Below the pieces are notes generated by a model. That model did not search any database. It saw only the letters and a list, made by a program, of their open reading frames with translations, and was not told the origin of the DNA. A stretch of 64,000 nt of DNA from Actinomycetota bacterium. Lineage in GTDB: Bacteria; Actinomycetota; Geothermincolia; Geothermincolales; RBG-13-55-18. This document shows, in pieces, positions 124 to 45,060 of the stretch. How positions within the stretch are numbered: the first letter of the stretch is position 1; each line of letters opens with the position of its first letter. Location: the NCBI GenBank assembly GCA_030019255.1, contig JASEFK010000001.1:184367-248366 (forward strand), in the 5' to 3' direction. The position numbers and the translations under genes are program-made.

Positions 124-1281
124 ATGTTGAGGTTCCTGGATGCCGGTGAGTCACATGGATTTGGGATAATTACCATTGTGGAGGGCATGCCCATGGGAAT
201 TCCCGTGAGCCGTGAATTCCTCGAATCCGAACTGGCACGAAGGAGGTTGGGATACGGCAGGGGAGCCCGCATGTCCCTGGAAAAGGACAAGGTGGAGATA
301 CTGAGCGGGGTGAGAGGGGGACGTACCCTGGGAAGCCCGGTGGCCATGCTGGTTAGAAACGCTGAATATAAGAAGTGGATGAAGATAATGTCCCCCGGCG
401 GCGATGTGGAGGTCGAACCCCTCACCAGGCCTCGGCCCGGCCACGCCGATTTGGCGGGAGTGCTCAAGTACGGGACAAGGGATATAAGGGACATACTGGA
501 GCGTTCCTCGGCCCGGGAGACGGTGGGCAGGGTGTGCGCGGGTGCCCTGGCCAAGTCCCTCCTCGCCGGCTTCGACATTCACGTGCATTCCCACATCCTC
601 CAGGTGGGGGAGGTGAGGGTCCCGGACAGGAAGGCCTTGCCGCGACGGGAGGAGATGGCGGGCGCCGACGGCGACCCCCTGCGCTGCCTTGATCCGGAAG
701 CGTCGCGACGTATGCGCGAGGAAGTGGACCGCGCCCGACGGGAGGGCGACACCCTGGGTGGCGTTTTCGAGGTGGTGGCCTACGGGGTTCCAGCCGGCCT
801 GGGGAGCCACGTGCACTGGGACCGGAGGCTGGACGCGCGCCTGGCGGCCGCGGTCATGTCCATCCAGGGCGTAAAAGGAGTGGAGATCGGGGAGGGTTTC
901 CGGCTGGCGGGCCTGCGGGGCTCCAGGGCGGCAGACCCCATCTGTCATTCCCGCAGGAGGGGGTTTTACCGGCCGACCAACCGCGCCGGAGGGCTGGAAG
1001 GGGGGATGACCAACGGTGAGCCGGTGGTGGTCAGGGCGGCAATGAAGCCCATCCCCACCCTGGCCTCCCCCCCAGAGACCGTGGACCTATTGACCAAGGA
1101 GAGGGTGCGGGCGGCCGTAGAGAGGGCCGATGTGTGCGCCGTTCCGGCGGCGGCGGTGATCGCCGAAGCGGCGCTAGCCTTCGTACTCGCCGACGCCCTG
1201 CTGGAGAAACTCGGCGGCGACAGCCTGCAGGAATTGGAGGTCCGTTTCCGGGAACTTGTCAGGCGCCACAGGTCCTTTTAA
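124..1281 (+). CDS. aroC: Chorismate synthase
   Basis: 385-aa ORF. N-terminal MLRFLDAGESHGFG motif and overall similarity to the chorismate synthase family. AGGAGG RBS at 110-118. Confidence 0.9.
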   Translation: MLRFLDAGESHGFGIITIVEGMPMGIPVSREFLESELARRRLGYGRGARMSLEKDKVEILSGVRGGRTLGSPVAMLVRNAEYKKWMKIMSPGGDVEVEPLTRPRPGHADLAGVLKYGTRDIRDILERSSARETVGRVCAGALAKSLLAGFDIHVHSHILQVGEVRVPDRKALPRREEMAGADGDPLRCLDPEASRRMREEVDRARREGDTLGGVFEVVAYGVPAGLGSHVHWDRRLDARLAAAVMSIQGVKGVEIGEGFRLAGLRGSRAADPICHSRRRGFYRPTNRAGGLEGGMTNGEPVVVRAAMKPIPTLASPPETVDLLTKERVRAAVERADVCAVPAAAVIAEAALAFVLADALLEKLGGDSLQELEVRFRELVRRHRSF

Positions 1282-1471
1282 GGGGTAGGCCTTCAACTGT
1301 CCTTCAACTGTTATGGATACTGGTAATCACGGGAAGATGACCAAGGAAATAATGTATTACCGGGGAGCTATCCGCGGAGGGATTGGCTCGCATGACCATG
1401 AACACCTTGCGTAATGGTAAGTGTCCTACGCGGAACGCTCGCGGAAAGGGAAAGGTGGGATGTAAGGAGAG

Positions 1472-1981
1472 GTGAAGAACCTGACCCTCATCGGTTTCAT
1501 GGGAGCGGGGAAAAGCGCGGTGGGAAGCCTCCTGGCCCATAGGCTGAAGATGGGATTCGTGGATCTCGACGAGGCCATCTCCAGGGAAGCGGGCATGAGC
1601 GTGGAGGAGATCTTCGAGCGCGAAGGGGAAGAGGGGTTTCGCGATCGGGAGAGCCGGGCCCTGCGCGAGGAATTGCAGCAGGAGGGGATAGTGCTGGCCT
1701 GCGGCGGGGGCATCGTCGTCCGCCCCGAGAACGTGAGGCTCCTGCGAGATAGATGCACCGTGTTCTACCTGCGAGCGAGCAGGGACAGCATCCTGCGGCG
1801 CGTGGGTGGAGGGGAGGGACGACCCCTCCTGGCGGGTGGGCGAGTGGCGGAGCGGGTGGAGGAGCTCCTCTCCCGGAGGGAGGAGGCCTATCGCCAGGCC
1901 GCCCATTACGTGGTGGACACCGACGGCCGCTCGGTGGAGGAAGTGGTGGAGGAAATAGCGGGGATATGGTTGCGGAACTGA
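1472..1981 (+). CDS. aroK: Shikimate kinase
   Basis: 169 aa. P-loop LIGFMGAGKS and the shikimate kinase fold pattern. GTG start preceded by a TAAGGAGAG RBS. The 3' end overlaps the aroB start. Confidence 0.85.
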   Translation: MKNLTLIGFMGAGKSAVGSLLAHRLKMGFVDLDEAISREAGMSVEEIFEREGEEGFRDRESRALREELQQEGIVLACGGGIVVRPENVRLLRDRCTVFYLRASRDSILRRVGGGEGRPLLAGGRVAERVEELLSRREEAYRQAAHYVVDTDGRSVEEVVEEIAGIWLRN

Positions 1982-3090
1982 TGGTCCGGGCGGGAGGGAA
2001 GGAATATCCCATCTCGGTGGGGCGGGGAATTTACGGACGCGTGCTTCCGGAGGCACTCCGCCGCCTCGCCCCCGCACGGGTGGCGGTAGTAACCCATCCA
2101 ACCCTGCGGGAGGGATACGGCCAGATCCTGGAGGAGGCCATCCAGGCAGGGTTATCCGGAGAGGCACGTGTGGCCTGGTTCACCTTTCCCGAGGGCGAGG
2201 AGAACAAGAACCTCCGCGTGGTGGAGGAGGGATACCGCCACCTCATCCGGGAGGGATTCACCCGGGAGGACCTGGTGGTGGCCTTCGGAGGTGGTGTGGT
2301 GGGTGACCTGGCCGGTTTCCTGTCCGCCACCTACATGCGGGGGGTCCGCTACCTGCAGCTTCCCACCACCCTGATGTCCATGGTGGATTCGAGCATCGGA
2401 GGGAAGACGGGGGTGGACCTCCTAGAGGGGAAGAACGCCGTGGGTTGTTTCCATCAGCCCGAGGCGGTGATAGCCGACGTCTCGGTGCTGGAGACCCTTC
2501 CGGAGAGGGAGTTGTTGAGCGGGCTGGCCGAGGTGGCCAAGTACGGTTTCCTCTACGACCGGGAGATCCTCCAGGAGATGGAGGGCTGGCCGGAGGGGAG
2601 GCCACCGCAGGGATACGATTTCACCTCCCTGGTGCGCCGCTGTGCGGAGCACAAGGTGAAGGCGGTGGAGGCGGACGAGAGGGACCTGAAGGGAGTACGC
2701 GCCTTCCTCAACTACGGGCATACCTTCGGCCACGCCCTGGAGGCGGCTGCCGGATACCGGCTGCTGCGCCACGGCGAGGCGGTGGCCCTGGGGATGATCA
2801 TGGCCTCCCGGCTGGCGGAGCGGAGCGGCCTGTCCCGAACCCCCCTGGAGGAGGGACACCTCCGCGTGCTCCTCCCCCTCCTGCAGTATATTCCTTCCGC
2901 CCTGGAGGTCTCCGCCCAGGAGGTCCTGGGTTTCATGGAGGCGGACAAGAAGCGGGGGCGGGCGATCCGTTTCGTGCTTCTCAGGGATTGGCAGTCCCCG
3001 GTTCTGGTGGACTCACCCCCGGTGGAGCTGGTGAGGGAGGCGGTGGGAAAGACCCTGGAGGACTTGCGCGGATGGATGGGATACCCCTAA
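1966..3090 (+). CDS. aroB: 3-dehydroquinate synthase
   Basis: The internal ATG at 1966 gives about 374 aa (MVAELMV...). DHQ synthase motifs are present (GGGVVGDLAGF, Gly-rich NAD site, HTFGHALE). The upstream part of the track ORF (1753-1965) is a low-complexity read-through. Confidence 0.85.
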   Translation: MVAELMVRAGGKEYPISVGRGIYGRVLPEALRRLAPARVAVVTHPTLREGYGQILEEAIQAGLSGEARVAWFTFPEGEENKNLRVVEEGYRHLIREGFTREDLVVAFGGGVVGDLAGFLSATYMRGVRYLQLPTTLMSMVDSSIGGKTGVDLLEGKNAVGCFHQPEAVIADVSVLETLPERELLSGLAEVAKYGFLYDREILQEMEGWPEGRPPQGYDFTSLVRRCAEHKVKAVEADERDLKGVRAFLNYGHTFGHALEAAAGYRLLRHGEAVALGMIMASRLAERSGLSRTPLEEGHLRVLLPLLQYIPSALEVSAQEVLGFMEADKKRGRAIRFVLLRDWQSPVLVDSPPVELVREAVGKTLEDLRGWMGYP

Positions 3091-3170
3091 CCGTTGCTCG
3101 TGGGCGTGGCCGAAGACGGGTGAGGGGAGGGAATATCATTTAATGTATCCTGAAAGGAGGTAGGTCGAGC

Positions 3171-3605
3171 ATGCCTCTTATCGCCGTGGTCAACGGCCCC
3201 AACCTCAACCTGCTCGGGGAACGGGACCCGGAGATATACGGGACGATCGGCTGGGAGGAAGTCAGGGACGCACTCCGGGAAAGGGCGGCCGAGATGGGGG
3301 TGGAGCTGGAGTTTTTCCAGAGCAACCACGAAGGGGCCATCATCGATTACCTGCAGGGCCTGCGGGGTCGCGCCGCCGGCCTGGTAATCAACCCCGGGGC
3401 CCTGACCCATTACGGATACTCTCTGCGGGACGCCCTGGCGGACCTGGACATCCCAGCCATCGAGGTGCACCTAAGCAACATCTTCGCCCGGGAGGAATGG
3501 AGGGCACGTTCGGTGGTCTCCCCGGTGGTCAGAGGAGTGATAAGCGGCCTGGGGACGGAGGGATACCTGAGCGCCGTGAGAATTATGGCGGAGTGGGTGC
3601 GATAA
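3171..3605 (+). CDS. aroQ: 3-dehydroquinate dehydratase, type II
   Basis: 144 aa. MPLIAVVNGPNLNLLGERDPEIYG is the canonical type II DHQase N-terminus. HLSNIFAREEWR motif. Confidence 0.9.
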   Translation: MPLIAVVNGPNLNLLGERDPEIYGTIGWEEVRDALRERAAEMGVELEFFQSNHEGAIIDYLQGLRGRAAGLVINPGALTHYGYSLRDALADLDIPAIEVHLSNIFAREEWRARSVVSPVVRGVISGLGTEGYLSAVRIMAEWVR

Positions 3606-3711
3606 AAGCGTCGGGTTGCGGGGCTTACCCGGATGACGAGTTTTCTCACACCTTTCGGTATATGGCAAAGAAATGACAGGCGTACCGGGGGTTGTAACAG
3701 GATCGTAACAT

Positions 3712-3730: not shown

Positions 3731-3848
3731 CCGGGTTACCGTCGGGTGTGTTAAGGTCGGAAAGGAAAGCATCGATTATGTAAATAAGAAATGGATAAAC
3801 ACGAGTGAGTCGCAATGAATTGTTGATCGCCCGTGGCGGGGTGAGAAA

Positions 3849-4394
3849 ATGAGGCTTCTGCAAAACATCCTCGGAGATGATTACCCGGAAGACCAGGCGG
3901 GGTTTACCCTCATAGAGTTATCCATCATCGTGGTTATCCTGGGCATCGTGCTCACCCTGGCGGTCGTCAATTACGCCAATACCAGCAGGTCCATGGCCTT
4001 GAAGGGGGCCCAGAGGCAGGTGGAAGCGGCCCTCACCCGGGCCATGAACGCGGCACGCCAGGAAAATGTCGCTTACCGGTTGATCTTTTATCCTCAGTCG
4101 GACGCTGCCCACCCGAACTCCTACGAGTTCCTTCACCGGGTGGAAAGTGCCGGCAACTGGAACCTGGAGCCGGTGGACAGGTCGGTGAGTGGGGAAGAGG
4201 TCACGGAGGACGCGGGCCATTACTACATAGAGGTTTCCAACGGTGTGAAAATCTTGAACGATACGGCAACGGTCATCGATTTCGTCCCCCGGGGAACCAC
4301 CCAGACCGTTACTCCCGCCACCATCACCCTGGGGCTGGGTGGATCCACCATCAGCGTGGTCCTTGATGCGCAAGGAAGAATAAATCCGCAATAA
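3849..4394 (+). CDS. Type IV pilin / pseudopilin (prepilin-type N-terminal cleavage/methylation domain)
   Basis: 181 aa. N-terminal G-FTLIELSIIVVILGIV is the class III signal (G|FTLIE) followed by a hydrophobic helix. GC is lower than in the flanking genes. Confidence 0.6.
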   Translation: MRLLQNILGDDYPEDQAGFTLIELSIIVVILGIVLTLAVVNYANTSRSMALKGAQRQVEAALTRAMNAARQENVAYRLIFYPQSDAAHPNSYEFLHRVESAGNWNLEPVDRSVSGEEVTEDAGHYYIEVSNGVKILNDTATVIDFVPRGTTQTVTPATITLGLGGSTISVVLDAQGRINPQ

Positions 4395-4398
4395 TGTT

Positions 4399-6792
4399 TT
4401 GCAGGCTTGGAGAGGTGGAGAGTGCGAGATGTGGCTGCGAAGGAAATTGGATAACCAAGAGGGTTTTTCACTGGCCGAGATGCTGGTGGCCGGCCTGATA
4501 ATAGTGGTGGGACTCATCCCCATCATCCGCATGTTCGACGCTTCCTTTTCGGGAATGAGGGCCTTCGAGAAGATGCAGAAGAGCGTGAGCTGCGCCCAGG
4601 CCGCCCTGGAAAAAATTCGCTCCATGCCTTTTTATGAACCCCATAAGGATACCGATGTGAACTTGAATTTCGACATCGACGATCATTTCTGGGGCAGTAG
4701 AAGTCCCATAACCAGCAATCCGGCGGATGGGGAAGGAAAACCGGATTGGAGCGCCGTTCCCGAGGTCACCTACTTCAACTACGGCGGTTTCCCGGGATAC
4801 GAACCCTACCGGGTGACGGTCCAGCTCTCCTATCTCGAGGACGACACGGGCGTGGCGGTGATGAAAAGCGACTGGGGGCCTAAAACGGTGGGGAAAGACC
4901 GGCCCACTAACAGCGACAACCAGGTCATCCACCTACTGTTGGTTAAAGTGAACGTTTACTGGCAGTCGGGGGATGGAGAGGACAGTTACGTGCTGCAGAG
5001 CATCATCACCGACACCGAGGCCATCTACAACATCGGTATATCCAGGATCGTCGTCACCGGGCCGGACTCCATAAGGGATGCTACCAAGCCCAACGCCGCC
5101 GCTCACTGGTCCGATCCCAATGTGAACGTGAACGTGAGGATTGAGGGCTGGGGCTTTGATGACCTGAACGACGCCAACGGAAGAGCCCAGGCCTGGCTGG
5201 TCAGGGACAAGTACGAGGATATCCCCATCACCATCACCTCGTGGACACCCACGGTGCTCGAGGGCTGGACGACCCTTTATACGGGACATAACGAAACGAA
5301 CAATCCGTGGAGGCCCAAGGCGGCCATCGGCTTCTGGTCGGTGAAGGTACGCCAGGAGGGGGTAATCTCCGCCTACCTGTATGAAGGATTCATAGTCCAA
5401 TACCCCAAGCCGGTTATCGACGATTTCGGAAATGATCCCGATTACAGCAAGACCGGCCCCAATTATTGGAATGCGGCCGTGCTGAAGATTAGGGGTGGGC
5501 CTTTCTGCTTCCCGGTGGAATACCCGGCGGTGAGGCTGATCAAGGTGGACAATGAGGGCAACGTCGAACACCAGATTAATGGAACGGTCACCGCGGTAAG
5601 CGCGCCGGATGGGTCCTACGGTTATGCGTCCAGCCCCGCTTGCGAGATCACGGCCACCTTCGACTTTACCGGCGCTCCGCCCGGTGAATATCACATGCAG
5701 GTGGTGAACACCAAGGAACCCACCATGATCGGACACGTGGCCTCGGATCTCTCCAGCGCGGTATACGTGATCGAGGAGGCCATACCCGAGGTATACGACG
5801 TTTACGTCTACGGTACCGGTTCCCACCAGGCGTATAACAACATGGGGAATCCCTGGAGGCTGGTCTTCGAAGGGAAATATTTCAACATGCAGGGGACTCC
5901 CCCGGTGGAGGTATACCTGTGCAGCGACGTGGTCAACGGACAACCTGCCGGGAATTATGTTCAGGGAACCGTTGTGCAGGTCATGAACTATACCTACGTG
6001 ATCGCCGACTTCAACCTCTCCGCCCTGCCGGAGGGCTGGTACAAAGGTTATGTTAAGAACCTGAACAACAACCAGTCCGGATGGACCGTAGGTTCGCCCT
6101 TCCAGGTGGTGGCCTTCAATGCCAGTATAGGCGGGTTTGTGCCCGACAACGGCTACAATTTCTACGAGAACTACTACGACATACCCTGCAAGATCACCGG
6201 GAACGGCTTTTCCGCCACCTCGGGGGTTTCCATCACCGACGGTTCGGTGGAATACAGCCTGGCGGGCGAGTACACCGTCACCAACGATAACGAGATAAGG
6301 GTGAACCTCAACCTCATCGGTTGCGACAACACCCATAACTGGAAGGTGAGAGTATACTTCGGAAGTTATTATATCGAAAAGGAGTTCGACGTCATACTGG
6401 GGCCTGCCAAGATACTCCCCCCCAGCGACACCAAGTATGCCTTAGCCATTTACGCCGAGAGGTGGTATTCAGGTAGCGAATGGCATTATGAGACCACTTC
6501 AACCAGGGCATATGCCTGGAGGAGTTATTGGTATGGGGCCGGTTACGCGACCTTCCGGGTGAGGGGGATGGGATTCCCCATGAATGGGCAAACAAACTTA
6601 AGAGTATGGGGTAGTGGTCTGGACGTAAATGGCAATTTTAATTGCACTTACGATCGGACCAACAAGATTGTACAGATTCAGTCCTCTAGATGGACCATGC
6701 CGGGCGCTACAGGTCTTTACAACATAGAGGTCTATAGGGTTGGCGATACTATTAAGGATACCTACACGGGAAGATGGGAGCTGAGGAGTTAA
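4399..6792 (+). CDS. Large pilin-like protein (prepilin-type N-terminus, ~750-aa aromatic/Asn-rich C-terminal region)
   Basis: 797 aa. N-terminal ...NQEG|FSLAEMLVAGLIIVVGLIPII prepilin motif, possibly starting at ATG 4429. The rest is W/Y/N/G-rich and predicted beta-rich. Lower GC than the flanking genes. Confidence 0.55.
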   Translation: MQAWRGGECEMWLRRKLDNQEGFSLAEMLVAGLIIVVGLIPIIRMFDASFSGMRAFEKMQKSVSCAQAALEKIRSMPFYEPHKDTDVNLNFDIDDHFWGSRSPITSNPADGEGKPDWSAVPEVTYFNYGGFPGYEPYRVTVQLSYLEDDTGVAVMKSDWGPKTVGKDRPTNSDNQVIHLLLVKVNVYWQSGDGEDSYVLQSIITDTEAIYNIGISRIVVTGPDSIRDATKPNAAAHWSDPNVNVNVRIEGWGFDDLNDANGRAQAWLVRDKYEDIPITITSWTPTVLEGWTTLYTGHNETNNPWRPKAAIGFWSVKVRQEGVISAYLYEGFIVQYPKPVIDDFGNDPDYSKTGPNYWNAAVLKIRGGPFCFPVEYPAVRLIKVDNEGNVEHQINGTVTAVSAPDGSYGYASSPACEITATFDFTGAPPGEYHMQVVNTKEPTMIGHVASDLSSAVYVIEEAIPEVYDVYVYGTGSHQAYNNMGNPWRLVFEGKYFNMQGTPPVEVYLCSDVVNGQPAGNYVQGTVVQVMNYTYVIADFNLSALPEGWYKGYVKNLNNNQSGWTVGSPFQVVAFNASIGGFVPDNGYNFYENYYDIPCKITGNGFSATSGVSITDGSVEYSLAGEYTVTNDNEIRVNLNLIGCDNTHNWKVRVYFGSYYIEKEFDVILGPAKILPPSDTKYALAIYAERWYSGSEWHYETTSTRAYAWRSYWYGAGYATFRVRGMGFPMNGQTNLRVWGSGLDVNGNFNCTYDRTNKIVQIQSSRWTMPGATGLYNIEVYRVGDTIKDTYTGRWELRS

Positions 6793-7397
6793 TGGCGGTG
6801 GCAAAAAAAACGCGCAACTTCCGGGAGAGGATGCGGAAAGAACCCGTTCTCCGAATAGTGCCTGGAGAGGCGGGATTTACCCTCGCTGAACTTATGGTGG
6901 TTATCGGCATCCTGATCATCTTCCTCATCGGGGTGGCGGGAATGTTGGAATCCGGCGCCGACAGCTCAACCACCCAGTATGTTCTGGCCCGGATAGAAGA
7001 GGATGCAGGAAAAGTACTGGACACCATGACCCGCCAGATCAGGGTGGCCACGACCATCAATCCCTTCAGCACCAACAGCACCCTTATATTCTCGGGCGAC
7101 CTGGATGGGAGCGGAACTGTTCAGGCCATGGTCTTTACCGTTTCTGGCGGGAAGCTCATGCGGGGCTCCGACCCGAATAACCTCCAAGCATGGGTGGATG
7201 GGGTGGAGAGCATAACCTTTACCTATCATCGATTCAATCCTGTCACCAAGGCGATGGAGGAGATCACCCCGGGAACAGCTGGTTGGAACACCCTCGTGGA
7301 CCGCGTGGATATCGCCATCCGATTCTCTCGCCGGGCGGGAAAGATAAACCTGCAGAGGGACTATACCGGTAGCGTGACCCTGCGCAACAATTTGTGA
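6792..7397 (+). CDS. Pseudopilin / minor pilin (prepilin-type N-terminus)
   Basis: G|FTLAELMVVIGILIIFLIGVAG motif after a basic leader. ATG 6792 overlaps the stop of the previous gene (TAATG). The alternative start is 6774. Confidence 0.55.
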   Translation: MAVAKKTRNFRERMRKEPVLRIVPGEAGFTLAELMVVIGILIIFLIGVAGMLESGADSSTTQYVLARIEEDAGKVLDTMTRQIRVATTINPFSTNSTLIFSGDLDGSGTVQAMVFTVSGGKLMRGSDPNNLQAWVDGVESITFTYHRFNPVTKAMEEITPGTAGWNTLVDRVDIAIRFSRRAGKINLQRDYTGSVTLRNNL

Positions 7398-7413
7398 CGG
7401 TTTCTTTAAGGAT

Positions 7414-8943
7414 GTGGGTGTGATGAACGGCATAAAAAAGAGGGCGCGAAAGGTGATGCGCAGGTTGGGAAAGAAGGCATGGGCCACCTTCCTCGGGCCC
7501 AAGGATGAGGGTTTCGCCATCGTCATCGTCCTGGTGGCCCTGACCATGCTCTCCATCCTGGGCGCCGCCAGCCTCCTGCTCATGGTCTCCGCCCTGCAGG
7601 GCGCGGTCAACGCCAGACCGGAGGATAAAGCCTTCCAAGTTGCTGAATCCGCTCTATATCTCGCTCACGCCAAAATAGTCAACAACGAGATAACCGGGGG
7701 GACCGTTTACACTTATTCGGGCGAGCTTCTCGGTGGGAGTTACCAGCTGGAGATCCAGCCGGTTGCGGGCACCTACAACTACATCGTAACCGCTACGGGG
7801 TCTTACGTAGAGAGGGGCACCACCTACCGACGCAGGATAAGGGAGGAAGTCATCTACAGTGGCCTGCAGGCCTTCGACGTGATGAAGAACTATCTCCTGT
7901 TCGCGGGAAACGATGTAAACATAAGAGCTGACGAAACCATCAACGCGGGCGCGCCCATCACCATCAATGCAGGTGGGGGCGGCTCCCTGGGGGGCGGCAT
8001 TCGAGCCGAACGGGACGTGAATATCACCGTGACTCCCGTTGTCAGCCTGGGCGACGGGTTGACCATAAACGGCGACATCGAGGCCAAGAGAAAGCTTTAC
8101 GTGCATGTGGGACCGCGCTGGTTTGGATCGGTCAACGCCAGGCTTTACGGGAACATCAAGACCGGGGATAAATCCACCGGACAAAAGGGTACCGTGGAGC
8201 TGTGGGCGGACGGCATAGCCCAGCTCTTCCCGCCCGCCTTTTCCTTGGCTTACATATATGCGGCCACCACTGGTTCCATAAATTGGAGTCTTTATGCCGG
8301 GACCCTTATAAAAACGGTGGACAAACTCTTCGGGTGGGACCTGGGGGCCATCTATACCCCGCCGGGGGCGCCGATCCAACAGGCCGCTTGCGATAAAGTA
8401 TATGTGCCGGAGCCCAACTTCGAGTACTACCGCGCTCTAGCCCAGCAGCAGGGAAATTTCTTCATCGGCGACAAGACCTTCAGCGGCAACCTAAGTACCT
8501 ACGGTACGTCCTCGGTGACCGTCATCTATTGCACCGGGAATCTCACTCTCAACGGCGTGGCCTGGGACGTGCCGAATATGAAGGGTATATTCGTCTGCGA
8601 GGGAAGCTTCACTGCCAACAACCGTCTACAATTCAATTCCAACTCCAAGTTTCAGGTCATCAGCAAAGGGGACATAACCTTCAACAACGACTGGTCTTTC
8701 CTTGGATGGGGTTCCACAAACGAGTATTTCTTCTGGGCGGGAAAGGATATAAACGTGGACCTGGGAATGTTCAACAATCAATATTGCCAGATGACCGCCC
8801 TGCACGATATCAATATCTTCAGCTCGGAAAACCTTTTTGCCACCTGCACCATCAATTACCGCGCCCCGGACGTGGATGTGGCCGGTTTCCCCATCGAGCT
8901 CACGGTTATAAACTGGAGGGAGATCAGCCTGGACCAGGAATGA
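7414..8943 (+). CDS. PilX-N-like minor pilin / pilus assembly protein
   Basis: 509 aa. Basic leader, then EGFAIVIVLVALTMLSILGAASLLLMVSALQGA, resembling the PilX N-terminal domain family. Gly/Asn-rich C-terminus. Confidence 0.5.
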   Translation: MGVMNGIKKRARKVMRRLGKKAWATFLGPKDEGFAIVIVLVALTMLSILGAASLLLMVSALQGAVNARPEDKAFQVAESALYLAHAKIVNNEITGGTVYTYSGELLGGSYQLEIQPVAGTYNYIVTATGSYVERGTTYRRRIREEVIYSGLQAFDVMKNYLLFAGNDVNIRADETINAGAPITINAGGGGSLGGGIRAERDVNITVTPVVSLGDGLTINGDIEAKRKLYVHVGPRWFGSVNARLYGNIKTGDKSTGQKGTVELWADGIAQLFPPAFSLAYIYAATTGSINWSLYAGTLIKTVDKLFGWDLGAIYTPPGAPIQQAACDKVYVPEPNFEYYRALAQQQGNFFIGDKTFSGNLSTYGTSSVTVIYCTGNLTLNGVAWDVPNMKGIFVCEGSFTANNRLQFNSNSKFQVISKGDITFNNDWSFLGWGSTNEYFFWAGKDINVDLGMFNNQYCQMTALHDINIFSSENLFATCTINYRAPDVDVAGFPIELTVINWREISLDQE

Positions 8944-9266
8944 ACCCCGGCGCAACCCTTTCAGAGGTCCCAGCGATCGGGAACCAAGAATAGGAAAGGG
9001 TTGTGAAAAGCGAGCATCGTTTAAATGGCCTGTTCCCACGCCATTTCTTATTTAGGGTTCGCAGCTTGATGAATGGAAGGTATGGCCATTCAGTCTCCCC
9101 GAATCGATTCCCGCTCCCTTGGAACTTTTCCATCTGGAACGACGAGAGATACTGATCCGGGGCCGGGTGTTGCCATATTCCTGGAGGGGTTCGGGCATCT
9201 TGTTTTGCGCAGTCCCGTTCGCTTTAATGGGGCTGGTCGAAAGAACCTTACGAGGACAGGTGGGAA

Positions 9267-10454
9267 TTGCAAGACTCGGAATATTCCAAGCACAGGAGTC
9301 GTTTCCGTGAGGCGATGCGGGAGCGGGAGCTGGACGGGCTACTGGTCACGAGCCTTTCGGACGTGCGTTACCTGTGCGGGTTCAGCGGCTCCAGCGGCCT
9401 GGTGCTCCTTCTCCCCCGCTCGGGATGGTTCCTCACCGACTTCCGCTACCGGGAGCAGTCCCGGGAGGAGGTGGCCGGCCTGCGTACCCTCATCTGCGAG
9501 GAGGATTTCGGCAAGGGATTGCGGGAGATACTGACCCGCTCGAGGGGAGGAACGGCGCCGGGTTCCGCGCGGACGCGGGACCGGGACGTTGCGGGCTGTG
9601 CCGCAGGAGGAACCTCTCCCGGCGCCGCGGGCAGCGCGTCACCACGACCCCTGAGGATCGGGTACGACCCCCGGTCCCTTACCTGCGCGGAGCTGGCCCT
9701 GTACCGGCGGAGGCTGCGAGGGCTGGCCTCCTTGGTCCCACTCAAGGCGGACATGCAGTCGGTGCGGGCCCGCAAGAGCCCGGCGGAAGTGAGGGCTATG
9801 AAAAAGGGAATTCGGGTAGCCGAGGCGGCCTTCCGGGAGGCGCTCCGGGGGCTGGGAGAAAGACCCACCGAGCGGGAGCTGGCCCTGGAACTGGACTTCG
9901 CCGCCCGGCGCCGGGGAGCGGAGGCCGCCGCCTTCGAGACTATAGTGGCCGGTGGGGCGAGGGGAGCCCTGGTGCACGCCCGGCCCTCGGGCTCAAAGCT
10001 CACCGGGGCCGTGGTGGTGGACTGGGGCGTCGTGTTCGAGGGTTACTGCACGGATTGCACGCGCACCGTGGCCCTGGGGCGCGTCCCCGCGGAGATCAGG
10101 AAGGTACACCGCCTGGTCCTGGAGGCCCAGGAGAGGGCCCTGGAGAGGATAAGGCCCGGGGTAAGGGCGAGGGAGGTGGACCGGGTTGCCCGGGAGGTTC
10201 TGGAAAAAGCTGGCTACGGCAAGGCTTTCGGTCATGGCCTGGGGCACGGGGTAGGCCTGGAGGTGCACGAGATGCCGCACCTTTCCCCGCGGAGCCGCGA
10301 TGTCCTGGAGGAGGGCATGGTCTTCACCGTGGAGCCGGGAGTGTATCTTCCCGGGGTGGGAGGTGTGCGGGTGGAGGACATGGTCCTGGTCACCTCCTCG
10401 AGAGCGGAGGTCCTGACCTCCCTTCCCCGTTCCTTGGACCCCTCTGAGTACTGA
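9267..10454 (+). CDS. Xaa-Pro aminopeptidase/dipeptidase (M24B family)
   Basis: 395 aa. The C-terminal half has the M24 pita-bread motifs ([30 protein letters not shown]). The position between aroQ and efp is conserved in Actinobacteria/Firmicutes. Contains a low-complexity insertion (aa ~90-140). Confidence 0.8.
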
Positions 10455-10512
10455 ATACGGCGTGTGTTAAAATTGGACGCGTGAACGGAGAGGGGAGAGG
10501 AGAGTTGAAGAA

Positions 10513-11073
10513 ATGATCACCACGGCTGATTTCCGCAACGGTATCACCCTGGACCTCGACGGCACCCTCTACACCCTCATCTATTTCCAGCACGTGAAGC
10601 CGGGCAAGGGCGGGGCCTTCGTGCGCACGCGCCTGAAGAACCTCAAGACCGGGGCGGTCATCGAGAAGACCTTCCGCGCCGGGGAGAGGGTGGAGCTGGC
10701 CGTCCTGGACAAGCGGCGCATGCAGTACCTGTACCGGGAGGGCAGTAACTACCTTTTCATGGACCTGGACACCTACGAGCAGTTGCCTATCCCTGAGGAG
10801 GAGGTGGGCGAGGCGGCTAGGTACCTGGTGGAGGGGGTGACCGTGGAGGTCCCCCTCTACGAGGGGAAGCCGGTGGCGGTGGAGCCGCCGGTGTTCGTGG
10901 ACATGGAGGTGGTGGAGACCGCGCCGGGGGTCAAGGGGGACACGGCCAGCGGCGGGAGTAAGCCGGCCACCCTGGAGACGGGCCTGGTGGTAAACGTGCC
11001 CTTCTTCATCGAGGTGGGCAACCGGGTGAGGGTGGATACCCGCAGCGGCGAATACGTGGAGCGGGTGGAGTAA
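10513..11073 (+). CDS. efp: Elongation factor P
   Basis: 186 aa. [21 protein letters not shown] (conserved Lys loop) and the three-domain EF-P pattern. Confidence 0.95.
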
Positions 11074-11086
11074 GGAGACGAGGCAC

Positions 11087-11419
11087 ATGCTCGACGCGGG
11101 CGAATACAAGCTGCGCCAAGGGGTGCTGGAGCTTATAGCCGGTATAGCCCTCAACTCCGTGGAGGGAGCCTCGGGGGTGGCTCTTCGCGGTGGGTCTGGG
11201 GAGGAGGGGCGCAGGAAAAAGAACCTCACCAAGGGGATCAAGGCCTCCCCCTCGGAGGGCAGGGTGACCCTGGACCTGGAGGTCCACATGGACTACGGGC
11301 TGGATTTCCACTCCGTGGGCGCCGAGGTACAGCGCCGGGTCAAGGAGGCCGTGGAATCCATGACCGGTTGGTCGGTGGAGGCGGTGAACGTGGACGTAGT
11401 GGGGGTGAACGCCGTTTAG
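11087..11419 (+). CDS. Asp23/Gls24 family (alkaline shock protein-like)
   Basis: 110 aa. GVLELIAGIAL...VEG pattern and position upstream of nusB, as in B. subtilis yqhY. Confidence 0.75.
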   Translation: MLDAGEYKLRQGVLELIAGIALNSVEGASGVALRGGSGEEGRRKKNLTKGIKASPSEGRVTLDLEVHMDYGLDFHSVGAEVQRRVKEAVESMTGWSVEAVNVDVVGVNAV

Positions 11420-12034
11420 GTGAGCGGTTCCCAGCTCTTCAGCCGGCGCACCCTGGCCAGGAAACTGGCCTGCGATGTCCTCTACCGGATGGACCTCACC
11501 GGGGAAGGCCTGGAGGAGGCCGCGGAATCCTTCAGCCGCATGCTCGAGGAGGGGGTGGAGGAGCACCCCCAGCCTCCGGACGGCATCCCGGATATCTCCC
11601 AGGAGCGGGTACGCTTGCTCCTGGGCGAGGAGGCGGAGATCGAGGAGCTCTCCTCCTTCGGGTCCAGCAGCCTCGTGTACCCGGGCGAGCTGCCGGAGTT
11701 CTCCCTCGGCCTGCTGCGGGCCTACCTGGAACACGGGGAGGAGATCGACGGGCTCATCAATTCCTACGCCGACCGCTGGTCGCTGCAACGCATGCCCCTG
11801 GTGGACCGCAACCTTTTGCGGCTGGGCATAGCGGAGCTCCTCTACCTTCCGGATGTACCGCCCGGAGTGACCGTCAACGAGTACGTGGAGCTGGCCAAGG
11901 TCTTCTCCACCGAGGATTCCGGGAAGTTCGTCAACGGCATCCTGGGTCGGGTGGCCCGGGAGAGGAAGGGCATGGGGGAAGGCTTTTCGGCTTCGAAAGA
12001 GGAAAAGGGGGACGGGGGTCGAAGTAATGTTTGA
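11420..12034 (+). CDS. nusB: Transcription antitermination factor NusB
   Basis: 204 aa. RRTLARKLACDVLYRMDL N-terminus and LVDRNLLRLGIAELLY...VPPGVTVNEYVELAK NusB signature. Acidic insertion in the middle. GTG start. Confidence 0.8.
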   Translation: MSGSQLFSRRTLARKLACDVLYRMDLTGEGLEEAAESFSRMLEEGVEEHPQPPDGIPDISQERVRLLLGEEAEIEELSSFGSSSLVYPGELPEFSLGLLRAYLEHGEEIDGLINSYADRWSLQRMPLVDRNLLRLGIAELLYLPDVPPGVTVNEYVELAKVFSTEDSGKFVNGILGRVARERKGMGEGFSASKEEKGDGGRSNV

Positions 12035-12237
12035 AGCCGCGGAACGACCTCGTTCTCCGGCGTTGTCACGTTGCATGGCTGGGGAGGCGACGAAGCGGAC
12101 CGCGTGGTCCGGGATCGGGCCTCATTGGCTTGTGGCGCCAAACGCCAGGTAGGGTATCCTTCCGGTGGCCTCTACGGGAGCCGGTGGAGTGCCCGCCGAG
12201 TTGTTCGCTTCCCGCGGCGGTGATATGATGAATGAAA

Positions 12238-12272
12238 CCTTTAAATCCAGTCCCGTGAGGCTGGCAAGGGAT
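12238..12272 (+). promoter_or_regulatory. PyrR-binding loop (pyr operon attenuation RNA element)
   Basis: AAUCCAGUCCCGUGAGGCUGGCAAGG matches the conserved PyrR binding-loop consensus (ARUCCNGNGAGGCU...GCAAGG). It lies just upstream of a terminator hairpin and of pyrR. Confidence 0.7.
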
Positions 12273-12287
12273 AGCTGATGATGAAAG

Positions 12288-12326
12288 GCAGCCCTCCTGC
12301 GCCGGCCGCAGGGGGGCTTTTTTGGA
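12288..12326 (+). terminator. Intrinsic terminator (pyr leader attenuator)
   Basis: GC-rich hairpin GCCCTCCTGCGCCGGCCGCAGGGGGGC followed by TTTTTT. Confidence 0.75.
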
Positions 12327-12341
12327 GCCTTGAGCAAGGGG

Positions 12342-13026
<685 letters not shown>

Positions 13027-13029
13027 GGC

Positions 13030-13058
13030 CCCGTCCCCGGGACGGGGCTTTTTTTCGG
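13030..13058 (+). terminator. Intrinsic terminator / attenuator between pyrR and pyrB
   Basis: CCCCGTCCCCGGGACGGGGC hairpin followed by TTTTTTT immediately after the pyrR stop. Confidence 0.7.
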
Positions 13059-13103
13059 AACGTAGGCGTCTCCCGGGCCGGGGGCGCGAAGGGAGGGGTT
13101 TGA

Positions 13104-14042
13104 ATGGCCGGTGAAGCCGCGGAGCGGAGGCATCTCCTCGACGTGGACGACCTGACCCGCGAGGACGTGGAGCGGGTCCTGGAGACGGCCCGTTCCTTCT
13201 CTGAGGTCATGCGCCGCCCCATCAAGAAAGTGCCCTCCCTGCGGGGAAAGACGGTGGTAAACCTCTTCTACGAGCCCTCCACCCGCACTCGGCTCTCCTT
13301 CGAGGTGGCCGCCAAGCGCCTCAGCGCCGACGTGCTCAACTTCACCGCCTCCACCTCCAGCGTGGAAAAGGGGGAGAGCCTCAAGGACACCGCCCTAACC
13401 CTGCGGGCCATGGGGGTGGACGCCGTGGTCATCCGCCACCCGGTGGCGGGAACCCCCTGGCTCCTGCGTCGCTGGCTGGACGTCTCGGTGCTCAACGCCG
13501 GGGACGGCATGCACGCCCATCCCACTCAGGCCCTTCTGGACCTCTTCACCATGCGGGAGAGACTCGGGGACCTGGAGGGGAGGACCATCGCCTACGTGGG
13601 GGACATACTCCACTCCCGGGTGGCCCGCTCCGGGTTCAAGGCCTGCCTGGCCATGGGCATGCGGGTCGTTGCCGTGGCTCCTCCCACCCTGCTGCCACCT
13701 GTCCTGCCGGAAGGGGTGGAGGTGTCCTACGACCTGGACGAGGTCATCCCCCGCTGCGACGTCCTCTACATGCTGCGGGTCCAGAAGGAGAGGCTCCTGG
13801 AGGGAAGGTTCCCCTCCCCCCAGGAATATTCCAGGTTTTACCAGTTAAACCTGGAGCGGCTGAGGGCCGCCCGCCCGGGGGTGGTGGTCATGCACCCCGG
13901 GCCCATGAACCGGGGAATGGAGATCGCTTCCGAGGTGGCCGACGCTCCCCACGCGGCCATAACCGCCCAGGTGGCGGCGGGGGTGGCGGTGCGCATGGCC
14001 GTGCTCTTCCTCCTGCTGGGGATGGGGGAGAGGGGGGATTGA
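13104..14042 (+). CDS. pyrB: Aspartate carbamoyltransferase catalytic subunit
   Basis: 312 aa. STRTR, HPTQALLD and HPGP motifs. Confidence 0.9.
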   Translation: MAGEAAERRHLLDVDDLTREDVERVLETARSFSEVMRRPIKKVPSLRGKTVVNLFYEPSTRTRLSFEVAAKRLSADVLNFTASTSSVEKGESLKDTALTLRAMGVDAVVIRHPVAGTPWLLRRWLDVSVLNAGDGMHAHPTQALLDLFTMRERLGDLEGRTIAYVGDILHSRVARSGFKACLAMGMRVVAVAPPTLLPPVLPEGVEVSYDLDEVIPRCDVLYMLRVQKERLLEGRFPSPQEYSRFYQLNLERLRAARPGVVVMHPGPMNRGMEIASEVADAPHAAITAQVAAGVAVRMAVLFLLLGMGERGD

Positions 14043-14043
14043 A

Positions 14044-15390
14044 TTGGCGGATCTACTGCTTCGCGGGGCGCGGGTCATCGATCCCTTCCAGGGCCTGGAC
14101 GAGGTGTTGGACGTGGCCGTATCCCGGGGCCGGGTTTCCGAGGTGGGAAAGGGTCTCTCCGGGGAGGGCCGGGAAGTGCTGGAGGCGGAAGGGCTGGTGC
14201 TCTCGCCGGGATTTTTGGATATGCACGTGCACCTCAGGGACCCGGGGAGGGAGGACGAGGAGACCCTGGAGAGCGGGTTGGAGGCCGCGGTGCGCGGGGG
14301 ATTCACCGCCGTGTGCTGCATGCCCAACACCGACCCTCCCCTGGACAACGCACCCCTGGTGGAGGACCTGGTGCTGCGGGCGCGCGGCCTGGGCCTTGCC
14401 GACCTCTTCCCCGTGGGCTGCGTGACCCGGGGCAGGGAGGGGAAGGAGCTGGCGGAAATGGGGCTCATGTTCGCCAGCGCGGCCCGGGTGAGGGCCTTCT
14501 CCGACGACGGGGACCCGGTGGTCGACTCCGGCCTCATGCGGCGGGCCCTGCAATACGTCCGTAGGTTCGGGGGGGTCATCATTTCCCACCCGGAGGACGT
14601 CAGCCTCTCCCGGGGAGGCCAGGTCAACGAGGGTCGGGTCTCCTTCGCCCTGGGGTTGCGGAGCATTCCCGCCCTCGCCGAGGAGGTGATGGTGGCCCGC
14701 GACCTGCTGCTCGCCGAGGAGACCGGGGCGCGCCTCCACCTGGCTCACCTGAGCACCGCGGGGTCGGTGCGCCTGTTACGGGAGGCCAAAGCGCGGGGGG
14801 TGAGGGTGACCGCCGAGGCCACCCCCCACCACCTGGTCCTGAGCGAATTGGACATCCGGGATTATGACCCGGTATACAAGGTCAACCCTCCCCTGCGCAC
14901 CCCGGAGGACGTGAAGGAATTGCGGCGGGCCCTGGCCGACGGGACCCTGGACGCGGTGGCCACCGACCACGCCCCCCATTCGCCGGAGGAGAAGGAGCGG
15001 GAGTTCGATTACGCCCCCTTCGGCGTGGTGGGAATGGAAAGCGCCTTCCCGGTCCTGTACACGCAGCTGGTGGAGAAGGGGGAACTGGGACTTCCGGTGC
15101 TCATCGAGAGGCTGACCCTGGGCCCGGCGCGGGCCCTGGGACTGGAGCCCCCGGATTACGGGGAGGGGGTACGTCCCGGAGCCAGGGCGGACCTGGTGCT
15201 CCTGGACACGGTGACGGAATGGGTCATCGACGCTTCCGCCTTCGCTTCCCGGGGAAAGAACTGTCCCTTCCACGGTTGGAAAGTGAGGGGAAGGGTGGTC
15301 CTTACCATCAAAGGTGGAAAGGTGGTCTATCGCGCACCGGATTACCGGTGGTCACGCGAACAGGGCGAAAAGGTGAGAGAACGGACCTGA
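14044..15390 (+). CDS. pyrC: Dihydroorotase
   Basis: 448 aa. TTG start. DMHVHLRDPG, CMPNTDPP and DHAPH metal-binding motifs. Confidence 0.9.
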   Translation: MADLLLRGARVIDPFQGLDEVLDVAVSRGRVSEVGKGLSGEGREVLEAEGLVLSPGFLDMHVHLRDPGREDEETLESGLEAAVRGGFTAVCCMPNTDPPLDNAPLVEDLVLRARGLGLADLFPVGCVTRGREGKELAEMGLMFASAARVRAFSDDGDPVVDSGLMRRALQYVRRFGGVIISHPEDVSLSRGGQVNEGRVSFALGLRSIPALAEEVMVARDLLLAEETGARLHLAHLSTAGSVRLLREAKARGVRVTAEATPHHLVLSELDIRDYDPVYKVNPPLRTPEDVKELRRALADGTLDAVATDHAPHSPEEKEREFDYAPFGVVGMESAFPVLYTQLVEKGELGLPVLIERLTLGPARALGLEPPDYGEGVRPGARADLVLLDTVTEWVIDASAFASRGKNCPFHGWKVRGRVVLTIKGGKVVYRAPDYRWSREQGEKVRERT

Positions 15391-24518: not shown

Positions 24519-24606
24519 GTCGGAGTGGCGGAATCGGTAGACGCGCTAGGTTGAGGGCCTAGTGAGGAGCTTCCTCATGGGGGTTCAAGTCCCCCCTCCG
24601 ACACCA
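24519..24606 (+). tRNA. tRNA-Leu (anticodon GAG), type II with long variable arm, CCA encoded
   Basis: Manual fold. Acceptor GTCGGAG/CTCCGAC. 3-bp D-stem GCG/CGC. Anticodon stem CTAGG/CCTAG with loop TTGAGGG (GAG). 16-nt variable arm. T-arm GGGGG-TTCAAGT-CCCCC. Discriminator A plus CCA. Confidence 0.85.
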
Positions 24607-44877: not shown

Positions 44878-45060
44878 GAAGGTGAGATTGACGCTCGGCG
44901 AACGAGGGTTATAATTTATCCAGCATTTCATGCCGCCGCGGAAGCATGAGGGCGGCGCAGGGAAATGGCGATGAAGCTCGCCTTTTGCCCCCTTAAAGGG
45001 GCTGATAGCTTCTACCCAAGAGGTAGGAGCTCTTCTTTTTTAGGGAAGGTGAGAAGAGGG

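Follow-up and report, generated by a model that had tools for sequence, protein, structure and literature searches.

Does a compact cluster of four prepilin-type genes, poorer in GC than its surroundings and with no pilus assembly gene close at hand, represent a foreign insertion or an ordinary part of its host's genome? The question arises from a 64,000-nucleotide stretch of DNA of an Actinomycetota bacterium (contig JASEFK010000001.1 of assembly GCA_030019255.1, positions 184,367 to 248,366 of the forward strand), hereafter the window, in which four consecutive prepilin-type open reading frames of the + strand (ORF1 to ORF4) fill positions 3849-8943, between aroQ (3171-3605) and the M24 peptidase gene pepP (9267-10454). 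An original prediction, made from the letters of the window, had taken them for a horizontally acquired minor-pilin module. We concluded that the cluster very probably encodes the core minor pilins of a type IVa pilus system in a Solincola-like actinobacterium, and that it is vertically inherited, with its assembly machinery adjacent. It is an ordinary, previously uncharacterised pilus operon, not a foreign insertion: the low GC content and a window without machinery mimicked an island, but the cluster is really the distal operon of a pilus locus that is divided yet contiguous and has been inherited vertically. A search of the literature found no paper linking Geothermincolia with pili.

The adjacent pilus machinery

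Pfam and tblastn searches of the window detected no pilB, pilC, pilD, pilM, pilN, pilO or further prepilin gene, which confirms the earlier statement that it contains no assembly ATPase, platform protein or prepilin peptidase. The conclusion drawn from this absence, that the machinery is encoded elsewhere, was nevertheless wrong because the machinery lies just past the left edge: the window starts 124 bases before aroC and the pilus genes therefore fall beyond it. Contig JBRBPE010000014.1 carries ORF4 and AroC residue for residue, and the protein identical to ORF4 (from the ATG at 7423) is named Candidatus Solincola sp., a genus of the Geothermincolaceae, class Geothermincolia, Actinomycetota (taxon labels of bins are given as deposited). 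Immediately before aroC, and in the same orientation, this contig has pilB (MshEN and T2SSE domains) and then pilT, an ABC ATPase with its permease, a TPR protein, pilC (T2SSF), an HTH_17 gene, pilM, a 277-residue gene in the pilN position, pilO and a gene for a 235-residue single-pass membrane protein; pilB, pilT, pilC, pilM and pilO were identified by Pfam. The last gene of this pilM-pilN-pilO operon, that of the 235-residue protein (L002 9230-9937, the window coordinate being the L002 coordinate minus 9877), reaches with its 3' end into positions 1-60 of the window, on the + strand. It is followed by the conserved backbone of aroC, aroK, aroB and aroQ (124-3605, + strand, Pfam), which are ordered alike in all relatives, and only these four genes stand between the pilMNO operon and the minor-pilin operon. 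What stood of the earlier claim is thus a minor-pilin set needing a separate machine, but this machine is adjacent, upstream of aroC. The same arrangement, with a PilB/PilC/PilM-N-O machine directly upstream of aroC, was present in eight further loci.

The ABC ATPase, ABC-2 permease and TPR genes between pilT and pilC are found in the Solincola lineage (L002 1908-4672) and in L030 (11095-13546), and are absent from L009, L011, L012, L022, L024 and L029.

The four prepilin-type genes

The most likely starts of the four genes are the ATG codons at 3849 for ORF1 (3849-4394, 181 residues), 4429 for ORF2 (4429-6792, 787 residues), 6792 for ORF3 (6792-7397, 201 residues) and 7423 for ORF4 (7423-8943, 506 residues). 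The program-made list of open reading frames differs, having begun ORF2 at TTG 4399 and ORF3 at 6774, and ORF4 has an alternative GTG start at 7414. The gaps between the genes are 34, -1 and 25 nt, the stop of ORF2 and the start of ORF3 overlapping as TAATG, and the four pilin genes therefore form one operon.

In all four proteins a charged leader with Gly at -1 gives way to a hydrophobic residue at +1 and a run of about 20 such residues, and these features are kept in the orthologues. The full class III signature, with Gly-1, Phe+1, Glu+5 and the hydrophobic helix, is present in ORF1 (EDQAG/FTLIELSIIVVILGIVL, the slash marking the cleavage site, after an 18-residue leader), in ORF2 (DNQEG/FSLAEMLVAGLIIVV) and in ORF3 (PGEAG/FTLAELMVVIGILII). 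ORF4 (PKDEG/FAIVIVLVALTMLSIL) has the Gly-1/Phe+1 pair and the hydrophobic helix, but an Ile at +5 in place of Glu, so that the class III N-termini announced for all four genes are confirmed for the Gly/Phe pair and the helix, and for Glu+5 in ORF1 to ORF3 only. In a six-frame translation of the 64 kb the strict class III motif occurs at exactly three sites, all within the cluster and belonging to these three ORFs. Alignments of the families support the cleavage sites, since Gly/Phe and Glu5 are invariant or nearly so in the orthologues of ORF1 to ORF3: F19 (+1) and E23 (+5) are invariant among 16 orthologues of ORF1, G12 and E17 among 29 sequences of the ORF2 family, and E33 (+5) among 15 orthologues of ORF3. 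In the ORF4 family G33/F34 are nearly invariant, and the whole family lacks Glu at +5. A missing Glu5 is the expected trait of PilX/GspK-type caps.

Searches with profile hidden Markov models (HMMs) matched N_methyl for ORF1 and ORF3, GspH for ORF1 and PilX_N for ORF4, most of them under the thresholds. ORF1 is above both cut-offs for the prepilin N-terminus (PF07963 N_methyl, 26.1 bits against 21.2, E = 6e-06; TIGR02532, 19.5 against 16.3) and just under that of Pfam GspH (20.6 bits against 21, E = 6.8e-04), with further matches to NCBIfam TIGR01708 GspH (E = 3e-11) and to the E. coli prepilin-peptidase-dependent protein PRK10506 (E = 4e-09); together with the alignment of orthologues, this points to a GspH/FimU-like minor pilin. 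ORF2 has no Pfam family and no N_methyl match in Pfam or NCBIfam, only a weak match to the PilV N-terminal model TIGR02523 (E = 0.007). ORF3 falls just under the N_methyl cut-off (20.8 bits against 21.2, E = 2.7e-04) and matches PRK10557 (E = 0.006). ORF4 was rightly described as PilX-N-like (PilX_N, E = 5e-05); it has a weak GspK match as well and no N_methyl match in Pfam or NCBIfam. The NCBIfam matches to GspH, PilV, prepilin-peptidase-dependent protein and GspK are all under the curated cut-offs, and we used them as leads, not as memberships. The I- and J-type identities of ORF2 and ORF3 have these weak N-terminal matches (PilV and PRK10557) behind them, and the two proteins were placed in the PilV/GspI and PilW/GspJ positions by their place in the operon. 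The resulting order H, V(I), W(J), X(K) is that of fimU-pilV-pilW-pilX and gspH-I-J-K, as is well established (bioRxiv 10.64898/2026.02.12.705559). Judged by sequence and gene order, the four genes can be read as the core minor-pilin set, that is the priming or tip set, in its canonical order.

The two large proteins belong to restricted families. All 28 homologues of ORF2 are 777-835 residues long and come from Actinomycetota metagenome bins. An exhaustive search of 1.84 billion cluster representatives with an HMM of the ORF4 family returned 23 representatives at E <= 1e-30 and 401 at E <= 1e-3, most of the listed matches at the latter threshold covering only the N-terminal pilin part. Because only 23 are reached at E <= 1e-30, the full-length ORF4 family is a narrow one.

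Synteny and extra copies in related genomes

We retrieved 20 related loci, by look-ups of exact proteins and one scan of species-representative genomes, and annotated them by tblastn. The gene order pilC, HTH, pilM, pilN, pilO, 235-residue gene, aroCKBQ, H, V, W, X, pepP, efp, asp23, nusB, pyrR is kept in L013, L009, L024 and L007, in which the ORF2 orthologue is 89%, 58%, 45% and 47% identical, respectively, and it is kept in part in L012, L016, L017, L020 and L022. The slot between aroQ and pepP had been described as variable and as holding an unrelated membrane protein in relatives. On the contrary, it holds the four-gene pilin set in every retrievable relative with enough flanking sequence, down to 45% identity; the slot is constant within the lineage, and what varies is the copy number and the presence of extra sets at other loci.

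The upstream end of the locus could be followed in other relatives, where it starts after aroE (L011, L012, L029 and L030). In three of these (L011, L029 and L030) the interval from pilC to the HTH gene contains pilD as well as one or two short major-pilin genes, which makes the locus complete. The more distant L026 and L027, with PilT 68-70% identical, show the order alaS, ruvX, mltG, aroE, pilB, pilT, pilC and two pilins, continued by a large V-like gene, a W-like gene, a large X-like gene without Glu5 and then pilD, so that the minor pilins stand inside the main locus. The V-, W- and X-like proteins of L027 are 610, 212 and 490 residues long; after pilD, where L026 ends, L027 goes on with two HTH_17 genes, pilM, a gene in the pilN position and pilO. 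The whole type IV pilus locus is thus embedded in a backbone of aroE ... aroCKBQ-pepP-efp, and the aro block comes between the minor-pilin operon and the other pilus genes in the Solincola-like lineage. A similar linkage is known from Proteobacteria, in which pilMNOPQ is flanked by aroK-aroB (PMC7545093), and we confirmed hofMNOPQ-aroK-aroB directly in E. coli K-12; in Actinomycetota, too, pilus and shikimate genes are linked, and here the linkage frames the whole pilus locus. A location of Gram-positive pilus loci beside aro and efp genes was looked for in Imam et al. 2011 (PMC3244431) and not found there.

Several genomes contain more than one set. L007 has two in tandem (4297-9259 and 9417-14340), the first ordered V-H-W-X and with a W gene missed by the gene caller; in the Uz-U4-47 bin, four-gene sets occur on at least 3 contigs. 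L018 likewise carries tandem sets, and extra copies are also found in L018, L023 and L025. In L019 (9409-14457) and L021 (7437-12563) the set stands among metabolic genes (PFOR, Lgt, acyl-CoA dehydrogenase), with no pilus or aro gene within 10 kb. The four-gene set is, on long time scales, portable.

Two observations on the surroundings of these loci deserve mention. L020 (MGNI01000208.1), labelled Chloroflexi bacterium RBG_16_48_8, carries the 235-residue gene, aroCKBQ, H, V, W and X at 34-65% identity and with several frameshifts; since the order is of the actinobacterial type, this is likely a mis-binned or mislabelled contig. Just upstream of aroE-pilB, a further group of genes was seen in L029 (1809-7358), L030 (1057-7276), L011 (4272-7083) and L012 (461-1006). 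It comprises a small Ras-like (MglA-like) GTPase in all four loci, a giant PATAN-domain (PatA_N) protein of 757-1465 residues in L011, L029 and L030, and two or three Roadblock/LC7 genes in L029 and L030, so that the pilus locus seems to adjoin something like a polarity module of the MglA/MglB type.

Composition and inheritance

The low GC content of the cluster, on which the prediction of a foreign origin was built, is real: the four pilin genes are at 0.549-0.575, about 3 standard deviations (SD) under the 0.650 +/- 0.027 of the other 47 genes of the window. First codon positions account for about half of the shift (GC1 of 0.51-0.58 versus 0.663 +/- 0.051 in the other 47 genes), and this half reflects amino-acid composition, the pilins being richer in Ser, Thr, Asn, Gln and Tyr (28% versus 16%) and poorer in Gly, Ala, Arg and Pro (26% versus 33%). 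What remains is a genuine decrease at synonymous sites, with a GC at third codon positions (GC3) of 0.69-0.74 versus 0.844 +/- 0.039 in the other 47 genes. The contrast recurs in L009 (GC3 of 0.70-0.79 versus 0.84-0.90) and, in weaker form, in L007; in L019 the set does not differ from its neighbours in GC3, and GC1 alone is low. Presence of the cluster in the relatives, which the original prediction had named as part of what would refute it, is thus confirmed, but a core-like composition, the other part, is seen in none of them, and low GC looks like a stable property of the pilin genes across this group. We attribute it to the amino-acid composition of extracellular proteins together with a weaker codon bias, not to foreign origin.

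According to the original prediction, the cluster was a horizontally acquired minor-pilin island in a variable aroQ-pepP slot, serving a machinery elsewhere in the genome. Besides a GC and a GC3 clearly under the flanks, such a reading could invoke the presence of the same four genes at the unrelated loci of L019 and L021 and of two to four sets in some genomes, as if a cassette had moved or been duplicated, and the perfect 14-nt inverted repeat TAAATAAGAAATGG / CCATTTCTTATTTA, whose arms, at 3781-3794 and 9041-9054, lie in the spacers bracketing the operon. The site is, however, occupied in all relatives for which flanks are available, the composition contrast persists in L009 and is confined to GC1 in L019, and the machinery is adjacent. 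Compared with L013, the pilin genes have dS values of 0.49-0.86, within the range of their neighbours, from 0.30 (asp23) to 1.07 (pilO), and a dN/dS of 0.11-0.19, which indicates that they are under purifying selection. Neither an integrase nor a transposase was found in the window by Pfam, and there is no tRNA near the cluster, the nearest being at 24519. As for the 14-mer, its occurrence is restricted to contigs of this one species; the 89% relative and all other species lack it. Considered as the ends of a mobile element, this perfect repeat and a 21-nt imperfect inverted repeat were rejected: the flanks are not extended repeats, and we take these matches to be due to chance or specific to the lineage, chance being the probable origin of the 14-mer. 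Taken together, these data largely refute a recent horizontal acquisition, and the operon appears to be vertically inherited; we regard the island as very improbable.

Between the window and L013, protein identity is 65-74% for aroK, aroB, aroQ and pepP, 93-95% for pilC, pilM, efp and pyrR, and 89-90% for the large pilins. Recombination, which could be imagined from pilins closer to L013 than aroB and pepP are, was also tried and rejected, the per-gene dS showing no discontinuity: dS is similar across those genes, and the difference therefore lies in dN, that is in a relaxed constraint on the aro genes and pepP, and not in a recombination boundary.

Some results weigh against an inherited minor-pilin operon with an adjacent machine, and they should be considered together. 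The GC3 is truly about 3 SD under that of the neighbours, which alone is compatible with an old foreign origin. The subfamily calls of ORF1 to ORF3 draw on HMM matches below threshold, on gene order and on size, and when the profiles of these three families were compared with the sequences of the Protein Data Bank (PDB), the match was confined to the shared N-terminal α1 helix. Finally, searches of the window and of the 10 kb preceding aroC revealed neither a major pilin nor a prepilin peptidase of this genome. Loci of the Solincola type have, between pilC and the HTH_17 gene, an AT-rich gap of 300-400 bp (L002 6164-6463; L009 1677-2083; L012 6373-6742) where relatives carry pilA/pilD, and tblastn detected no pilA or pilD remnants in the window or in these loci. 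In the relatives L011, L029, L030 and L027, pilD is within the locus.

Predicted structures of ORF2 and ORF4

The two large proteins were modelled with AlphaFold2, and a long N-terminal α-helix lying on an antiparallel β-sheet is present in both models. For ORF4 (pLDDT 80, pTM 0.69), the model comprises N-terminal helices (31-89) followed by a sheet of four strands (99-148), a long series of short strands (162-481) and a last strand (496-504). Compared with the PDB by Foldseek, it gave three significant matches only, all of them chains of Thermus thermophilus ComZ (E = 1.7e-08, TM 0.29); the solenoid taken by itself matched cellulose-binding tapirins and ice-binding proteins as well as it matched ComZ, and the ORF4 model also resembles GspK. 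ORF4 is thus predicted to consist of a GspK-like pilin domain into which a large triangular β-solenoid is inserted close to the C-terminus, an architecture like that of ComZ. The latter is a GspK-like tip pilin with a triangular solenoid before the last strand, which was argued to fit only at the pilus tip and which binds PilA2 and, through two lysines, DNA (PMC6561018). Cyanobacterial PilX proteins all have such a solenoid, proposed to act as a tip plug where PilY1 is lacking; the filament is capped by PilX, which has no Glu5, and several core minor-pilin sets can prime distinct pili (bioRxiv 10.64898/2026.02.12.705559). Tapirins are cellulose binders encoded beside the pilus locus of Caldicellulosiruptor (bioRxiv 10.1101/359786).

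The ORF2 model has a mean pLDDT of 86.5 and starts with a pilin head, made of a helix (15-64) and a small sheet extending to about residue 195. Beyond the head it shows about five Ig-like β-sandwich domains, at roughly 203-325, 329-450, 454-561, 566-655 and 672-786, and the best Foldseek matches were titin, plexin IPT, contactin, the Ig-like domains of PrgB and the Sap S-layer protein. With the weak TIGR02523 match, this describes a modular minor pilin, an Ig-repeat version of the PilV-position subunit, which is a somewhat unusual feature of the operon.

Proposed function and alternative readings

The mechanism that we propose is modelled on the GspHIJK and FimU-PilVWX paradigm. By analogy with these systems, the prepilin peptidase PilD would cleave all four proteins after the conserved Gly. 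ORF4 would cap the tip complex, a role proposed because of its missing Glu5 and its bulky β-solenoid; ORF2 and ORF3 would join it as I- and J-type subunits in a K-I-J-like tip complex, and ORF1, of the H type, would be the adaptor linking this tip to the major pilin. Such a complex would prime polymerisation on the PilC/PilMNO platform and stay at the pilus tip, extension being driven by PilB and retraction by PilT. The solenoid of ORF4 and the ORF2 stalk of about five Ig-like domains would be the exposed parts that contact a ligand.

What the tip binds can be stated with less assurance. Adhesion to a surface or a polymer is, by a small margin over an even chance, the function that we expect, DNA uptake is rather unlikely, and some other function, or both together, takes the remainder. 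MglA-like GTPase, Roadblock and PATAN families hint at polarity-controlled twitching motility, and it is because such genes adjoin the locus in relatives that adhesion is favoured over DNA uptake. In its full form, the competing proposal is a dedicated DNA-uptake (competence) pilus, with ORF4 as a ComZ-like tip DNA receptor and ORF2 or ORF3 as a PilA2-like partner. The retraction ATPase PilT is encoded in the locus and the mechanism has a precedent in ComZ (PMC6561018); yet the ORF4 solenoid fits tapirins and ice-binding proteins just as well, stalks of five Ig domains are found more typically in adhesins, the genes adjoining the locus in relatives point to motility, and no comEA, comEC or dprA was found in the window or in the retrieved loci. 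We therefore hold a competence pilus to be an improbable alternative, and an even less probable one concerns ORF2, which may be a modular adhesin pilin scattered along the fibre, the real core consisting of ORF1, ORF3, ORF4 and another small pilin. Its Glu5 and normal pilin head would allow insertion in the shaft, its PilV assignment is weak, and modular pilins are known (bioRxiv 10.1101/2021.01.27.428410), such as PilB and PilC of Streptococcus sanguinis. But in a four-gene set that is strictly conserved ORF2 always comes second, no other candidate for the I type is seen, and the distant actinobacterial L027 also has a large second subunit followed by W- and X-like genes; moreover, a module of about 590 residues on every position of the shaft would probably be sterically unfavourable.

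If the minor-pilin operon is the tip module that we propose, a solenoid-capped tip complex of the ComZ and cyanobacterial type would extend to an uncultivated class of actinobacteria. Going one step further, the set and its upstream repeat element (described below) may be a self-contained, exchangeable "tip cassette", in which a large two-part adhesin tip replaces PilY1 in a monoderm; we put this forward tentatively, as rather less likely than not to be right. The large adhesin would then consist of a ComZ-like solenoid cap and a five-Ig stalk on the PilV-position subunit, and one PilB/PilT/PilC/PilMNO machine could build alternative tips, because Geothermincolia genomes hold one to four copies of the set. 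Pili with alternative tips were recently proposed for cyanobacteria (bioRxiv 10.64898/2026.02.12.705559). The ligands of the ORF4 solenoid and of the ORF2 Ig stalk, and the regulator of the upstream repeat, offer testable handles.

Control elements

In the 243-bp spacer that precedes ORF1, at 3694-3710 (+ strand) and thus about 140 bp upstream of this gene, stands the direct repeat GTAACAGGATCGTAACA, of the form GTAACA-N5-GTAACA and with an 11-bp period. The pattern occurs once in the window, where 0.02 matches would be expected by chance, and when six intergenic spacers are aligned no other block is strongly conserved. Of 13 related species-level loci, 10 have it at a distance of 80-210 bp before the first pilin gene; the contig of L015, one of the three without it, is too short upstream to contain it. 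In the relaxed form GT[ACG]ACA-N5-GTAACA(T), it was located in L009 (9284-9300), L013 (9284-9300), L014 (132-148), L019 (9231), L021 (7256-7272), L022 (9178), L023 (5155) and L024 (9167). Three of the ten repeat-bearing loci (L019, L021 and L023) have no aroQ detected upstream of the set. A -35-like TTnACa hexamer follows the repeat. We regard the element as a probable operator or activator site of the pilin operon, a candidate that travels with it even where the set stands at another place in the genome. An 11-bp period is typical of sites for OmpR-type response regulators, and the regulator is possibly such a protein or the HTH_17 protein of the locus. The spacer between aroQ and ORF1 gave nothing credible in Rfam, with no c-di-GMP or other riboswitch, and a scan for the sigma-70 consensus found no promoter on the + strand.

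Downstream of ORF4, the RNA of 8951-9053 (+ strand) is predicted to be structured, with a folding energy of -47.7 kcal/mol and a z-score of -3.2 versus shuffled sequences. It forms a 12-bp stem and then a hairpin AAAUGGC...GCCAUUU followed by CUUAUUU. A simple terminator scan did not list it and returned one weak + strand site, at 9180. This hairpin may, on weak evidence, be a terminator closing the four-gene unit before pepP; the operon would then be governed by its own control element, the GTAACA repeat, and probably by its own terminator.

Other features of the window

Downstream, the conserved backbone resumes with pepP and efp (9267-11073, + strand, Pfam). Two ordinary RNA features were found farther along on the + strand, a PyrR binding-site RNA upstream of pyrR (12234-12326, 55.3 bits) and a tRNA-Leu(GAG) (24519-24606). 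The only other low-GC gene of the window encodes a dynamin-family GTPase (ORF 44965-46842, GC of 0.569, GC3 of 0.73), and its annotated start is overlapped by an Rfam match to the fluoride riboswitch (44958-45021, + strand, 34.8 bits for a gathering threshold of 34).

Comparison with known systems

The closest functional counterparts of the operon are gspH-I-J-K and fimU-pilV-W-X, which likewise consist of four prepilin genes in one operon and in the same order, with the H-type gene first, and which depend on a PilB/PilC/PilMNO machine. Their sequence similarity to ORF1-4 is limited to the N-terminal helix. The system described here differs from them in that its host is presumably monoderm, with no secretin or PilY1 seen, and in that the second subunit is the largest (787 residues, about five Ig-like domains) and not the smallest; moreover, GspK carries an α-helical insertion where ORF4 has a β-solenoid.

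For ORF4, the nearest relatives in architecture are ComZ (PDB 6QVI) and cyanobacterial PilX, which share with it a GspK-like domain, a solenoid placed after the fourth strand and before the final one, a gene beside those of other minor pilins, and a bulk that would be accommodated only at the tip. ComZ is nevertheless distant, from a different phylum, with about 10-12% sequence identity and a TM-score of only 0.29, and it is not a predicted PilD substrate (PMC6561018), whereas ORF4 has a clear Gly-Phe cleavage site. The Caldicellulosiruptor tapirins (PDB 4WA0, 6N2B and 6N2C) are also encoded by pilus-adjacent genes in a Gram-positive thermophile and bind cellulose (bioRxiv 10.1101/359786); their structures cover the C-terminal domain only, no pilin N-terminus being evident in them, and the organism of the window, unlike theirs, shows no cellulolytic context. 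For ORF2, PilB (vWA module) and PilC (lectin module) of Streptococcus sanguinis provide examples of a functional module on the C-terminus of a pilin domain, but the module of ORF2 consists of about five Ig-like domains without Pfam match and occupies the PilV position of a core set. As to the locus as a whole, pilMNOPQ and hofMNOPQ-aroK-aroB of Proteobacteria similarly have alignment-complex genes directly before genes of the shikimate pathway. Here, in contrast, the block is aroC-aroK-aroB-aroQ, aroE stands before pilB, and a second pilus operon, that of the minor pilins, follows the aro block.

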